A stretch of 51,177 nt of DNA from a virus. Lineage: Duplodnaviria > Heunggongvirae > Uroviricota > Caudoviricetes. The position numbers were made by a program, and so were the translations under genes. This document shows positions 30,514 through 43,066 of this stretch, piece by piece. Positions within the stretch are counted from its first letter, which is position 1. Each line of letters opens with the position of its first letter. The notes beneath the pieces were generated by a model, which worked only from the letters and a program-made list of their open reading frames with translations, was not told the DNA's origin and did not search any database. The DNA lies in IMG/VR virus record IMGVR_UViG_2579778634_000021; one strand, given 5' to 3'.

Positions 30514-30570
30514 CGCGCTTCCCGGCGCGGGCTTTTTTTTATCCAACAAGAAAGCCCCTCCGGAGAGGGG
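30514..30570. terminator. two back-to-back terminator hairpins
   Basis: cccgcgc..gcgcggg followed by T8 (plus strand), then gcccctccggagaggggc with a U-rich run on the minus strand. Confidence 0.5.
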
Positions 30571-30800
30571 CTGGAGAGTAGCGCTATGTACCGTTCATGC
30601 ATGGTGCAGGGTGCCTCCCGGTGAGTTCAGTATCAGCACCTGAACCCGCACCAGAAAGGATAAGGGGTGTGACCAAACACCTGTCGCTGATATGCCCCTC
30701 CGCACAGGGGGATTCACCATGCCATATTTTTTTAACAAACTTCCCGCTGGCCAGACAATAATCGCCAGCCTGAATTGTGAGTAACGTGGCATTTTACGGG
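30545..30800 (-). repeat. repeat unit 1 (about 250 bp, begins with the hairpin aaagcccctccggagaggggct)
   Basis: Shares several long blocks with 31025..31285, for example catggtgc.gggtgcctcccggt and gggggattcacc...tttttaacaaa...gccagacaat. Confidence 0.6.
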
Positions 30801-31024
30801 AAAACTGTTTTCTGCAGTAAAAAGGCCCGCCGGAGCGAGCCTGGAAGGATAGCGGTCATGTGATGCCGGTTTCCCGGTAACTCAGCATCGGTATCTGAGT
30901 CAACGTTTTCTCTACTGGGTCATTTCCGATACGTTCCGCCTTCCGGCAGACTTTCATCACGTCAGAAAATATAGCACCCTGAGTAACAGGACAGTACTCA
31001 GAATTCAGGAAACTGTGACACATC

Positions 31025-31285
31025 CTGCACAGAAAAGCCCCTCCGGAGAGGGGCTGAAGTATAGCCTAATTTCTGTCTGTCGCATGGTGCCAGGTGCCTC
31101 CCGGTAAATTCAGCCTGGCTACTGAATTTGCATGTTCGCTGGATCATACACTTTGCCAGATGCCCCGCCGCTGAGGGGGATTCACCACGCGATGCAATTT
31201 TTAACAAATTCTCCGGCAGCCAGACAATCATCAAGCTGTGGAATTGTGAGGTATTTAAAAATTTCGCAGCCTCTTGCCACCCGCT
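31025..31285 (-). repeat. repeat unit 2
   Basis: Same block order as unit 1. A degenerate third copy lies between them at about 30821..30960. Confidence 0.6.
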
Positions 31286-34834: not shown

Positions 34835-35112
34835 GACAACGCCCTCTGGTTGATGAATTTAACTATCACCACCGTCAGGTGCAAATCTTTGGGTGGTGAG
34901 ACGTACAGGGTTTGCACTACCGGATCAACCAACCGGCGAGCCTTTCGGCTCCCCCATACGCCCCACCATAATTCAGATGTGCGTGTGCTTACGACAACAA
35001 AAAACACGCTCGCGGCGTGTGTCTGTCGCGGTTGAATATCCGGGGTGCAAATCCCGACGCCAGATTTTGCTGGCGCGTGAGGAATATAGCCCCGAATAAA
35101 TCATCACGTCAA

Positions 35113-36766: not shown

Positions 36767-37057
36767 TCATCTTTTAACTCCATATACCGCCAATACCCGT
36801 TTCATCACTGCACTCTGGCGACACTCCTTAAAAATCAGGTTCGTGCTCACCTTTCCTTCCCGTTCTTCCCTGGTAGCAAACCGGTAATACACCGTTCGCC
36901 AGACCTTACCATCAATGACAAGGATTCCTGCCCGCGCCATTTTAGCCGCAGCCTGATTTATACTGGTTACGGTTGCGCCTGTTACCGCGGAAACGTCCTG
37001 TGCACAGAAGTTCTTATGCGCCCCGAGGTAATGAATAATTGCCTCTTTGCCCGTCAT
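36767..37057 (-). CDS. ren: Ren (Rex-exclusion escape protein)
   Basis: 96 aa, near-identical to lambda Ren (MTGKEAIIHYLG...VLAVYGVKR). Confidence 0.9.
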   Translation of the reverse strand: MTGKEAIIHYLGAHKNFCAQDVSAVTGATVTSINQAAAKMARAGILVIDGKVWRTVYYRFATREEREGKVSTNLIFKECRQSAVMKRVLAVYGVKR

Positions 37058-39488: not shown

Positions 39489-40136
39489 ATGAAAACGATG
39501 CATGAAATTATCGGGGAAAGGATCAAGTCCCTTAGAGAAGCTAAAGGACTTAGCCAGGCTCAATTGGCCAAGCTTTGCGGCTGGGCTGCGCCTTCACGCC
39601 TGGGGAACTACGAGTTAGGAACAAGAAAGGTTAGCGCGGATGACGCGCTGGTTCTTGGGGCGGCACTCGGCGTATCTCCGGCAAAAATAATGTTTGGCGA
39701 GGATTCAGACGCTGTATTTCGCCAATATGAGTACCCGTTATTTTCTTCAGTGCAGGCCGGGCCGTTTTCGGAGGTTGGAAGCTACACAGCAAGCGATGCA
39801 AAGGCATGGGTCCCAACGACCACAAAAGCCAGCGAAAAAGCTTTCTGGCTTGAGGTGAAAGGCCATTCTATGACTGCGCCACAGGGCGTAAGGCCGAGTT
39901 TTCCTGAGGGTATGCTGATACTCGTTGATCCGGCCGAGCCGGTAGAGTCTGGGGATTTCTGCGTGGCTTCTGCAAATGGTGATTCAGAGGCAACGTTCAA
40001 GAAGTATGAGAAGGATGCAGGGGTTAGTTACTTGGTTCCATTGAATCCGGCATACAGAACCCTGGACTGCGATCACACATGCCGCATCATAGGCAAGGTA
40101 GTTAAGGCTCAGTGGCCTGAAGAGACGTTTGGATGA
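39489..40136 (+). CDS. cI: CI repressor (helix-turn-helix plus S24 LexA-like autopeptidase domain)
   Basis: 215 aa. N-terminal helix-turn-helix and a C-terminal S24 region (GHSM ... K). Confidence 0.9.
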
Positions 40137-40186
40137 TGGATGGTCGCAGAGATGCTCGTAGAGCATACAGCGATGCAGGAGAATTT

Positions 40187-40621
40187 ATGGCACTTAATTT
40201 AGAAAGAATATCTTTTATAACCCCATTTGATAGCAGCGAAGAACCCAACCAACCGACGCTTAATTTTACATGCAATGAATTTCCTGCGCGGCTATCGATT
40301 GATTTCAGGGTTGGTATGATCGGGTTGAAACCAAATTCAAGATATAATTTGGGTATTATGGTAATCCCCGCGCACCTAATTATAAAAAAAGGTGAGGAAA
40401 TTCAATTCCCTGACGGCTCTTCGGAATCAGTTTCACTTTTCATCGATACGAAAGATAGCCATTTTGAAACAGGGGTTGGCGGACAGGTAATAGTAACATT
40501 GAAAGAAATTAGGGTCCCAGCTAAAGGGCTGTATAGTGTTATAGGGATATTGCAAGATAATGAAGACCCTAAAAATGAACTTCATAAAAATGAATCATTT
40601 TTCACCGTAGAGCTATTATGA
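40187..40621 (+). CDS. hypothetical protein A of the cI-linked cassette (rexA position)
   Basis: 144 aa from MALNLERISF, after an AGGAG ribosome-binding site. A frame-compatible ATGA start at 40133 is also possible. AT-rich; no recognisable domain. Confidence 0.5.
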   Translation: MALNLERISFITPFDSSEEPNQPTLNFTCNEFPARLSIDFRVGMIGLKPNSRYNLGIMVIPAHLIIKKGEEIQFPDGSSESVSLFIDTKDSHFETGVGGQVIVTLKEIRVPAKGLYSVIGILQDNEDPKNELHKNESFFTVELL

Positions 40622-41238
40622 GTGACGACAGTAATTTAAATAATCATGGAAAGCAAGACACCAACATATCTGAAAGCCGGAGGTTGAAGGTTGTTGGCGG
40701 TTCCGATTTTGAGGCTGAATTTGATAATTCTCCCACCAAGGTGCAAAATAATTACATAAAACCGCCACAAACGGAGGAAGAAGTGGGAACGATCAGCAGA
40801 GAGGAACTTGATGCTCGCTTAGCTGCTAATAAAGCAGAGATGGAGTCTATTGCTTCTTCCATTAGGACTGACATGGCTCTATCTCGTGAAAGCGTTAATG
40901 TCCAATTTGCATCACTTAATGCAGCCATAAGCTCTCTATCGTCCAAGATCGATGGAAAGATGGATAGCGCTGCTGGCGATATAAAAGCAATTAATGGGAG
41001 ATTCGAAGGAATTCAAGGACAAATAACAGGGGTTAATACCGCAATTAGTGGTGTTCAGTCGGGTATTTCTATACGATTAGCCATTTTTAGTGTCATTATC
41101 GCTGTAATAGTTGCGATTCCCGGGCTGGTATCAGCTTTAAAGTCAGACCACGCACCTTTGCAACAGCCTTCCACTTTGCAAGCGCCGCCACAAAATACCC
41201 AGCCAACAGACAACAAAAAAATCACTCCCCAGCATTAA
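40618..41238 (+). CDS. hypothetical coiled-coil membrane protein B of the cI-linked cassette (rexB position)
   Basis: 206 aa. ATGA-coupled to protein A. Ser/Ala-rich coiled-coil-like middle, one C-terminal transmembrane helix (LAIFSVIIAVIVAIPGLVSAL), and a Pro/Gln-rich tail. Confidence 0.5.
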   Translation: MSDDSNLNNHGKQDTNISESRRLKVVGGSDFEAEFDNSPTKVQNNYIKPPQTEEEVGTISREELDARLAANKAEMESIASSIRTDMALSRESVNVQFASLNAAISSLSSKIDGKMDSAAGDIKAINGRFEGIQGQITGVNTAISGVQSGISIRLAIFSVIIAVIVAIPGLVSALKSDHAPLQQPSTLQAPPQNTQPTDNKKITPQH

Positions 41239-41246
41239 CGCATTAA

Positions 41247-41272
41247 CCCGGCCTCAGCGCCGGGTTTTTTGT
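41247..41272 (+). terminator. intrinsic terminator closing the immunity operon (t-imm-like)
   Basis: cccggc-ctcagc-gccggg followed by TTTTTT. Confidence 0.7.
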
Positions 41273-41518
41273 TGCCTGCACATAACTATCAGGACAGCAC
41301 CTGCCAGCCAGCCCAAGCCTCTGATTAAATTACTATAATTCTTAATACAACTCCCATATCCCGCCATCTCGTCACCACCTACTTCGCTCGTTTTTCGAAC
41401 TTTTCAGCACACCATCCTGCTGTTTCCCCCGCCTTAAGTAAGCAAACCCATCGCGGGGAAAACTATTTACACAAAAAAATCATACACATAACGTGTCACA
41501 CCCTTATTTTACACATTT

Positions 41519-41552
41519 TGTGATTGACCATTAAATCACAATATGTGACTAT
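41519..41552 (+). promoter_or_regulatory. OL operator and pL promoter region
   Basis: Palindrome TGTGATT-N8-AATCACA overlapping TTGACC, 17 nt, GACTAT. Confidence 0.55.
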
Positions 41553-41597
41553 TATTTCCATCAGCAGGACGCTGGTAGCCAAACGGAAAAGATTGGC

Positions 41598-41743: not shown

Positions 41744-42016
41744 ATGTCCAGAAAAACAGAATTTAAAGGCACCGCAGCTTCTCGCCGTAGAGCTCGTCGC
41801 GCAAACCTGCAAAGTCAGGAGTCGATTAGCTCCGACAAGCTACACAGGCCAACCCCTTCACGAGTGGTCTTGCAATGCAAGCGCAAACCAGCAATGAGAG
41901 CAGAAGTTATAACTCTGACAACGTTGACCAGAAAATATGAAGGTTCAACTTGTCTTCCAAACGTAGCCATTTACGCTGCAGGCTACCGTAAATCCAAACA
42001 ACTGACAGCAAGATGA
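41744..42016 (+). CDS. N: N-like antitermination protein
   Basis: 90 aa with an N-terminal arginine-rich motif (SRRRARRANLQ). GGAGG ribosome-binding site. First gene after pL and nutL. Confidence 0.7.
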   Translation: MSRKTEFKGTAASRRRARRANLQSQESISSDKLHRPTPSRVVLQCKRKPAMRAEVITLTTLTRKYEGSTCLPNVAIYAAGYRKSKQLTAR

Positions 42017-42077: not shown

Positions 42078-42701
42078 ATGTCATCAATCCGCTTAACTAC
42101 GAGAATGAAAGAGGAAATCGCTCGTAACGCTTTAATTAAGTCCGGGGTGTTCACTGAACTTGAAGAAGTAACAAAGTTAAAGAACCAGCTTGCACTTGAC
42201 GCCAGAGTTATTGCGTTTGGCGGGAAAAAGAAAACCGAAGAAGTGGACCAGCTGGCATCAAAGTTAATGGCTGCAAGTGAGGAACTTCAAAAGCTGGGAT
42301 GTTCATTTTACTCATGCGATGTCAGTTCATGTTCGATTTATCTGACTGTATCTGGAAGAAGGGTTGGCTGGCATTCATACGGAAAAGACGGCAACGGTGA
42401 AGATATATTGCTCCCTACCCCCGACAAAGATAAATGCATGTTTGACGCAGAACACAAAATAACAAAAAGGTTTGATGAAATCTGCGCATTGCAACAAAAA
42501 CTTGAAGCCAGGAAAAAGGATATAGAATCAAACGTATGGGCTGCTTTGAACTCAGTCACAACAGTTAAGCGACTTATTGAAGTTTGGCCTGAAAGCAAAG
42601 AGTTGCTACCAAAAGAAGCAGATAAAGCAAGTGCAGCACTTCCTGCTTTACGGGTAGAAGATTTGAATAAGATGATTGGACTTCCTTCCGAGGCCGCATA
42701 A
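42078..42701 (+). CDS. hypothetical protein (early-left operon, ral/sieB slot)
   Basis: 207 aa from MSSIRLTT with a GAGAGG ribosome-binding site. AT-rich; no known domain recognised. Confidence 0.5.
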   Translation: MSSIRLTTRMKEEIARNALIKSGVFTELEEVTKLKNQLALDARVIAFGGKKKTEEVDQLASKLMAASEELQKLGCSFYSCDVSSCSIYLTVSGRRVGWHSYGKDGNGEDILLPTPDKDKCMFDAEHKITKRFDEICALQQKLEARKKDIESNVWAALNSVTTVKRLIEVWPESKELLPKEADKASAALPALRVEDLNKMIGLPSEAA

Positions 42702-42861: not shown

Positions 42862-42925
42862 ATGCATACCAATAACGCTTCACTAGAGGCGTTTTCGTTA
42901 TGTGTAAATAAATAAGGAGCACACC

Positions 42926-43066
42926 ATGCAATATGCCATTGCAGGGTGGCCTGTTGCTGGCTGCCCTTCCGAATCTTTACTTGAACGAATCACCCGTAAA
43001 TTACGTGACGGATGGAAACGCCTTATCGACATACTTAATCAGCCAGGAGTTCCCAAAAATGGATAA
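42926..43066 (+). CDS. cIII: cIII (FtsH inhibitor)
   Basis: 46-aa [49 protein letters not shown], which matches lambda cIII. Not in the supplied ORF track because it is under 60 aa. Confidence 0.85.
   Translation: MQYAIAGWPVAGCPSESLLERITRKLRDGWKRLIDILNQPGVPKNG

Follow-up and report, generated by a model that had tools for sequence, protein, structure and literature searches.

The DNA considered in this study, referred to below as the window, is the whole of IMG/VR virus record IMGVR_UViG_2579778634_000021 (51,177 nucleotides, nt) and represents a lambda-like siphovirus prophage whose orientation is reversed in comparison with the lambda map, with P, O, cII and cro on the minus strand. Immediately downstream of its cI repressor gene, which is presumed to be the first gene of the pRM operon, are two small genes on the same strand, here named A and B, and these are closed by an intrinsic terminator, Timm, just ahead of OL and pL (Table 1). 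As an earlier note on this DNA had proposed, the two open reading frames (ORFs) overlap in ATGA, which holds the stop codon of A and the start codon of B, the terminator is a strong one, and the pair occupies the position of lambda rexA-rexB. The position proved to be exactly the rexA-rexB slot, delimited on the left by the 3' end of cI with a 38-nt linker and on the right by a terminator identical to lambda Timm. Based on the results presented here, A-B is a mobile accessory operon (a 'moron') that lambdoid prophages carry in the cargo slot of their repressor operon. Phage exclusion is its most likely role, with a probability put at roughly one half.

The start codon of A lies 50 nt beyond the cI stop codon, and no terminator was found between the two genes when the plus strand was scanned; from cI to N, Timm was the sole terminator-like site on that strand. 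On the minus strand opposite the cassette, no competing ORF longer than 64 amino acids (aa) was found. Judged from this layout, A and B are most likely transcribed together with cI in lysogens, with the transcript ending at Timm. A longer, 162-aa reading of A from the ATG at 40133, which overlaps the cI stop codon, was rejected because the extension occurs only in near-identical E. coli copies and the A homologues of other genera begin at the methionine equivalent to position 40187.

Table 1. Features of the repressor operon and its surroundings in the window (position 1 is the first letter of the window)
Feature	Position	Strand	Description
cI repressor	39489-40136	+	215 aa; HTH and S24 autocleavage domains; PF00717 (Peptidase_S24), E 3.9e-26, and HTH_3/HTH_31 (Pfam)
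38-nt linker	40118-40155	+	TGAAGAGACGTTTGGATGATGGATGGTCGCAGAGATGC; final 19 nt of cI with its stop codon, and 19 nt beyond; left slot boundary
Shine-Dalgarno AGGAG of gene A	40177-40181	+	5 nt before the ATG; read from the sequence
Gene A	40187-40621	+	144 aa, acidic soluble protein; TGA at 40619-40621
A/B overlap	40618-40621	+	ATGA
Gene B	40618-41238	+	206 aa; TAA at 41236-41238
Timm intrinsic terminator	41245-41270	+	AACCCGGCCTCAGCGCCGGGTT then T-run; stem-loop 41245-41266, 8-bp stem, 6 GC; right slot boundary
OL operators and pL	41478-41555 (approximate)	+	offset from the VT1-Sakai annotation, same immunity type; -35 TTGACC at 41524-41529
N	41744-42016		downstream of pL/OL; PF25694

On the left side of the slot, the 38-nt linker is identical in the window, in 933W and in 38 other Shiga toxin (Stx) phage records (39 Stx-phage records), and the 3' ends of all examined cI alleles share one sequence. 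In 933W the linker sits between L0084 (PDC-S43) and L0083-stk, and in other E. coli prophages it sits between a PDC-S43 gene and gene A. On the right side, an alignment of the downstream flanks showed that the Timm hairpin AACCCGGCCTCAGCGCCGGG with its T-run is base for base the terminator that follows rexB in lambda, and that of HK542 as well; variants of this hairpin end the slot in VT1-Sakai, mEpX1 and a Rac-like Enterobacteriaceae prophage, and the downstream hairpin was annotated as Timm in EF120458 by its depositors. Between these flanks the cargo is rexAB in lambda, PDC-S43 with L0083 and stk in 933W, PDC-M63A/B in mEpX1, hex in 434 and a 183-aa orphan in VT1-Sakai; the cI genes of VT1-Sakai and mEpX1 are both 95% identical to the cI of the window at the DNA level. 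In HK542 and HK244, whose cI is that of lambda itself, the A-B cassette stands in place of rexAB, and the cassette of the window is 98.8% identical in nucleotides to their hypothetical-protein genes (ABO40687/ABO40688; HK542_035). The cassette and its position are the same in these two phages and Timm is annotated there, whereas the repressor beside it is that of lambda and not the VT1-Sakai type of the window.

An identical linker and a shared terminator around different cargoes indicate a slot with conserved recombination flanks and exchangeable cargo. Moreover, a 113-aa DUF3024 gene matching PDC-S43 lies between cI and A-B in about 10 E. coli prophages (e.g., locus L018, 3158-3499), and L0084 of 933W, ahead of L0083-stk, is likewise a DUF3024/PDC-S43 gene (locus L084, 3174-3515, minus strand). 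This extra gene implies that the slot is able to hold stacked cassettes, and the linker, from its placement in these sequences, looks like a dedicated recombination joint for the exchange and stacking of cargo in the repressor operon. L0083 of 933W was considered as a relative of A and was rejected, despite having the same linker upstream (hhalign probability 0.1%).

The cassette also differs from its surroundings in composition. A and B have GC contents of 0.377 and 0.432, respectively, versus 0.519 for cI and 0.514 for the window, and at third codon positions the values are 0.32 and 0.37 versus 0.52 for cI. With a value of 0.41, the cassette has the lowest GC content of all 1052-nt stretches in the window (mean 0.516, standard deviation 0.049), and it adjoins at least four repressor alleles; the earlier suggestion of an AT-rich, separately acquired cassette agrees with both results. 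In E. coli, the cassette was found in 51 of 5426 complete genomes (~1%), in each case on the chromosome and with a hypothetical annotation. HK542 and HK244 were the only ones of 50,697 phage records to contain it, and a scan of species-representative genomes for B gave one locus. Both ORFs have been in GenBank as hypothetical proteins of HK542 and HK244 since 2007, and the novelty first ascribed to them was overstated.

In comparisons between genera, the synonymous sites of A and B were saturated, with proportions of synonymous differences (pS) of 0.69-0.84, and the proportions of nonsynonymous differences (pN) were 0.11-0.43. In one close pair, the ratio of nonsynonymous to synonymous substitution rates (dN/dS) was 0.18 for A and 0.05 for B. 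A and B are under purifying selection and are therefore real genes. Some altered copies were also encountered: the cassette is interrupted by IS1A in NZ_CP031134.1 (103058-104887), a partial copy (73% covered) is present in NZ_CP027445.1, one B allele (locus L005, 4432-5034) has a 6-residue deletion (200 aa), and truncated B clusters of 111-128 aa are common in the protein database.

Protein A is without any hydrophobic segment and matches PHROG 5893 over its full length (E 2.1e-50 over 1-136/140), a family labelled as of unknown function. It had no family match at all in Pfam and none above threshold in NCBIfam, in line with the earlier description of A as a soluble protein without a known motif. 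It is predicted to be a cytosolic, 7-strand immunoglobulin (Ig)-like beta-sandwich. A Foldseek search of the model against viral structures returned only uncharacterised phage proteins of similar size, and a profile of A run against the sequences of solved structures returned only a chance match to TRPM7 (E 0.018). When 1.84 billion representatives were searched exhaustively with a profile of A, only 23 relatives were found. About 15 of these have a single domain and a length of 136-153 aa, and a few weak profile matches were to giant proteins with He_PIG Ig repeats. The predicted fold of A points to a binding module and carries no functional label.

Protein B matches PHROG 5820 over its full length (E 3.4e-76 over 1-199/200), also labelled as of unknown function, and gave nothing above the family threshold in Pfam or NCBIfam. 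Its general layout, i.e., a coiled coil, one transmembrane helix and a Pro/Gln tail, is the one that the earlier note had read. Residues 1-58 are disordered and variable and contain the motif LKVVGGSDFEAEFDNS. They are followed by a long helix (61-142 in the secondary structure of the AlphaFold2 model), and residues 59-150 keep one unbroken heptad register of 13 heptads; in this coiled coil two 'a' positions are occupied by Asn, and one outer position is always Gly. A strongly conserved juxtamembrane motif of small residues, G-I-N-T-A-I-S-G-I-Q-S-G-I-S, runs directly into the only transmembrane helix, a purely hydrophobic segment at 154-174 (hydropathy maximum 2.71 at 154-172), and residues 175-206 form a disordered tail rich in Pro and Gln. 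The B family also conserves a short motif immediately outside the membrane (consensus QPIIIQVP); the allele of the window reads QPSTLQAPP. Since a signal peptide is lacking and residues 1-150 are charged, the only plausible topology of B would be that of a tail-anchored inner-membrane protein with the N-terminus inside and the C-terminus outside (N-in/C-out).

Several similarities of these proteins were examined and rejected. Matches of A or B to Baculo_PEP_C, SlaB, MakA/E and SmhB were low-complexity or coiled-coil noise and far under the cut-offs. As a ClyA-type alpha-pore-forming toxin (SmhB, MakA/E), B scored 14-15 bits in NCBIfam versus cut-offs of 320-360, and the profile match in the Protein Data Bank to SmhB (E 0.014, 58 residues only) and the match to MakE (E 0.007) were very weak and lay in the juxtamembrane region. 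As a CCDC90-like/DUF1640 protein (PF07798), it scored 12.7 bits (E 0.11) versus a gathering threshold of 33.5 bits; a distant B homologue (in locus L072) reached 30.8 bits (E 3.2e-7), which is still sub-threshold. Like B, the CCDC90-like/DUF1640 and XhlA (PF10779) proteins have a cytoplasmic coiled coil and then one C-terminal transmembrane helix, but they are not paired with an upstream partner and are not known to be linked to phage exclusion, and all scores to them were sub-threshold.

The homologues of B form 67 clusters at 90% identity, and every named source belongs to the Enterobacterales (Escherichia, Klebsiella, Enterobacter, Citrobacter, Cedecea, Leclercia, Salmonella, Yersinia, Pectobacterium, Pantoea, Xenorhabdus and Morganella). 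At all loci that were inspected, B is directly preceded by a small gene, often with an overlap, and the encoded partners fall into three types that are not related to one another: the A-type sandwich (141-153 aa), a protein of ~92-101 aa, and a protein of 112-130 aa with a CxxC...CxxC motif (zinc-ribbon type). The possibility that the ~97-aa partners are relatives of A was rejected (hhalign probability 0.2%). In all A-type pairs the N-terminus of B carries the motif [RK]x[KR]V..GG[ST]DF..F[DE], whereas in the pairs of other types the N-termini of B are different and longer; the coiled coil and the transmembrane helix are conserved in all of them. An N-terminus that switches with the partner would be expected if the partner docked on the tip of B that lies far from the membrane.

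The ATGA coupling of A and B is conserved, and downstream of distant A homologues there is again a coiled-coil protein that has a transmembrane helix at its C-terminus. In one example this is a 191-aa member of PHROG 5820 in a locus after an S24 repressor, and in another, within a baseplate gene cluster (locus L076, 2592-3757), it is a 110-aa protein. The latter pair, which may be a minimal version of the module, has a secreted or lipoprotein-like ORF of 119 aa upstream, and its 110-aa protein is weakly XhlA-like. In many genera the usual place of the module is right after the prophage repressor, either of the S24 kind or of the short Rac type (YdaS/YdaT-associated). It also occurs in myovirus tail and baseplate clusters, including a Morganella myovirus tail cluster, and in a P2-like Xenorhabdus element, where it lies between tail fibre and sheath genes; we take this to be the location of the T5-blocking Z/fun gene in P2. 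Its presence in such varied accessory positions is the behaviour of a moron and not of a core phage gene.

Among known systems, lambda RexAB is the obvious one for comparison. A-B lies in the identical slot, from the cI stop codon to Timm, in the same orientation and in the same order of a soluble and then a membrane protein. Nevertheless, the proteins themselves show no resemblance, as the earlier note had stated. BLASTP of A against RexA gave a best E of 7.7, and A is a 144-aa predicted Ig-like sandwich, whereas RexA has 279 aa and is a two-domain DNA-binding dimer whose fold is RdgC-like. For B and RexB there was no alignment at E<=100; B has 206 aa, a long coiled coil and a single C-terminal transmembrane helix, unlike RexB, a 144-aa polytopic membrane protein with four transmembrane helices. 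The ATGA overlap of A-B is also absent from rexA/rexB.

Much of the other cargo of the slot belongs to defence or candidate defence systems. The pair L0083-Stk of 933W shares with A-B the pRM-operon slot and the identical 38-nt linker upstream, but the proteins are unrelated, and Stk is a Ser/Thr/Tyr kinase that matches the PD-T4-6 kinase models of PADLOC at 1e-37, whereas A and B have no such match. PDC-M63A/B of mEpX1 (PADLOC matches at 1.8e-41 and 7.5e-45), which follow the 95%-identical cI, and PDC-S43/DUF3024 (L0084 of 933W) are cargo of the same slot as well, unrelated to A-B in sequence and themselves only unvalidated candidates. The stk kinase of 933W is on the same transcript as cI and causes abortive infection of HK97, and Hex of phage 434, encoded at the same operon position, excludes P22 and damps RecA-mediated induction (PMC3564112). 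It is by its position that a defence role of A-B becomes plausible.

If A-B excludes phages, a mechanism could be drawn from the predicted features as follows. B would insert N-in/C-out as a parallel coiled-coil oligomer, with a stalk whose heptads carry on uninterrupted into the transmembrane helix. At the tip far from the membrane, the ~55 variable residues of the N-terminus would dock the upstream partner, here the Ig-like A, and A would recognise a component of the superinfecting phage. The resulting change may travel down the stalk of B to the Gly-rich juxtamembrane and transmembrane region, and the outcome could be a perturbation of the inner membrane (Rex-like abortive infection) or an interference with genome entry. 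A Rex-like division into a soluble recogniser and a membrane component is attractive, and the sensor and membrane effector of the earlier note would be putative roles of this kind. A more tentative proposal, which we hold to be possible but doubtful, is that the B family as a whole constitutes a modular and hitherto unrecognised class of prophage defence in the Enterobacterales, in which a tail-anchored oligomeric stalk with a Gly-rich switch is combined with interchangeable adaptors that set the phage specificity, and signals pass in one or the other direction between the cytoplasm and the inner membrane. Signalling through the stalk could then lead from a phage protein sensed by the adaptor to membrane damage, or from genome injection sensed at the membrane to release of the adaptor. 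We know of no characterised system that works like this.

On the other hand, a number of results weigh against phage exclusion as the function of A-B. None of the 5027 models of PADLOC-DB v2.0.0 (2023) matched A or B at E<=10 in the scan that the earlier note had suggested, and the three alternative partner types gave no match in that database. Profile and structure searches, proposed on the same occasion, placed the proteins in PHROG 5893 and 5820 and yielded no characterised relative of either. A search of A and B for a nuclease, nucleoside triphosphatase, kinase or other recognisable effector or sensor domain found none, and in the accessible literature no study of the function of A or B was found, nor any mention of these proteins in the DefensePredictor supplements. 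The model of A is of moderate confidence (predicted local distance difference test, pLDDT, 70.7), and three of the five models were poor. Since the transmembrane helix of B is single and purely hydrophobic, an ion channel like that of RexB is not evident, and a protein that is mostly cytoplasmic does not suit a classical superinfection-exclusion protein facing the periplasm. The PDC families of PADLOC are candidates only. Furthermore, the accessory genes on the pRM transcript are not all defensive, as RexA also biases the lysis-lysogeny switch and Hex has its additional effect on induction (PMC3564112).

Four other explanations were weighed together with phage exclusion by a membrane-coupled sensor. 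Many prophage exclusion proteins are small inner-membrane proteins (HK97 gp15, T4 Imm and P22 SieA), and B, being membrane-anchored and with a conserved family motif just outside the membrane, might belong with them; the anchor and the periplasmic tail motif would then hit a component of the injection apparatus or channel and block genome entry at the inner membrane, with the partner as a stabiliser or chaperone. We consider this rather unlikely: about 150 of the 206 residues of B and the whole partner would be cytoplasmic, the allele of the window has lost the IIIQVP consensus, and the end of B that is variable and linked to the partner is the one furthest from the membrane.

Equally to be considered is a toxin-antitoxin or addiction pair, or a module of host physiology, in which B would be a membrane-active toxin or stress factor restrained by its small partner, for the benefit of prophage maintenance or of envelope or stationary-phase fitness. 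Such a pair would be in keeping with the close coupling of the two genes in one operon and with the covariation between the small upstream partner and the putative docking end of B, and the architecture of B is common to the non-defence CCDC90-like/DUF1640 and XhlA proteins and to ElaB/YqjD, which are tail-anchored coiled-coil proteins of non-defence kind. The juxtamembrane matches to the heads of alpha-pore-forming toxins (SmhB and MakE, see above) would also fit, but they are very weak and compositional, and every similarity score is far under the family thresholds. As the module is moreover confined to prophage accessory slots, this explanation is rather improbable. It overlaps with phage exclusion, since a toxin-antitoxin pair in this slot would probably act in abortive infection as well.

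Regulation of the prophage's own lysogeny-lysis switch or induction, through cleavage or stability of the repressor or through lytic commitment, would give A-B a role like that of 434 Hex or RexA. Hex lowers the RecA-stimulated cleavage of the 434 repressor (PMC3564112), and RexA biases the switch toward lytic growth. However, the module stands beside unrelated repressors, both S24-cleavable ones and short Rac-type ones that are not of the S24 kind, and it also lies far from any repressor in tail-gene clusters, which is hard to square with a repressor-specific role; a DNA-binding or RecA-related domain was not found in A or B. Such a role is quite improbable. Finally, disrupted copies (the IS1 insertion, the partial copy and the truncated B clusters P0014 and P0077) could suggest inert hitch-hiking DNA with decaying or unexpressed ORFs, but this is very unlikely because of the purifying selection on both genes across genera, in addition to the conserved ATGA coupling, the good ribosome binding site and the maintenance of both families across the Enterobacterales.

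The presence of ren in the window (36767-37057, minus strand, 96 aa, directly after P) had been taken as an argument for a Rex-like function of the cassette. This argument failed, as each occurs without the other: the cassette in HK542, and ren in VT1-Sakai and mEpX1. The ren gene goes with the lambda-type O/P replication module and not with A-B.

Some further features were observed around the operon. Between Timm and OL (41275-41470) are about 200 nt without a long ORF, of which at least the first ~70 nt after Timm (alignment to 41345) are common to VT1-Sakai and mEpX1, two phages of the same immunity type with different cargo; this interval may be a regulatory element beside OL. Directly 3' of N is an Nmad5 (nucleotide-modification-associated domain 5) gene of 207 aa (42078-42701, plus strand; PF18757, E 1e-68; PHROG 1965), which occupies the place where many lambdoid phages have sieB; HK542 also has a 207-aa gene right after N. 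In Rfam, the lambda cIII thermoregulator element was identified at 42913-42971 (plus strand, 88.5 bits), upstream of a cIII-like ORF. Also above the gathering score were, on the minus strand, the C4 antisense RNA beside isrK (34889-35076), two tandem copies of the small RNA STnc100 (30542-31220), and IS009 (1378-1576), RNAs that are typical of late or accessory regions in lambdoid and Stx-type prophages.

That alternative exclusion genes can occupy the repressor-operon slot is already established (PMC3564112). With this, and with the two ORFs on record since 2007, the cassette is not categorically new. As far as we can tell, the new elements are the modular organisation of three partner types around a conserved B and the defined flanks of the slot. 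The repressor operon of lambdoid phages is among the few places with genes that are expressed in every lysogen and, to our knowledge, the mechanism of RexAB is still not understood after 70 years. A-B is a natural swap for rexAB between identical flanks, it consists of two families without a characterised relative, and it is carried by an isolated, culturable phage, HK542, which makes it a cheap and clean handle. If A-B turns out not to exclude phages, the cassette would still illustrate the shuffling of cargo at conserved junctions. If it does, it would add to the known defence families one whose membrane component, a single-pass coiled-coil protein, is unusual and whose adaptors come in three subtypes. 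The interval from cI to Timm, with its linker and shared terminator, would then be a defined hotspot for defence in lambdoid phages, similar to those of P2 and P4.

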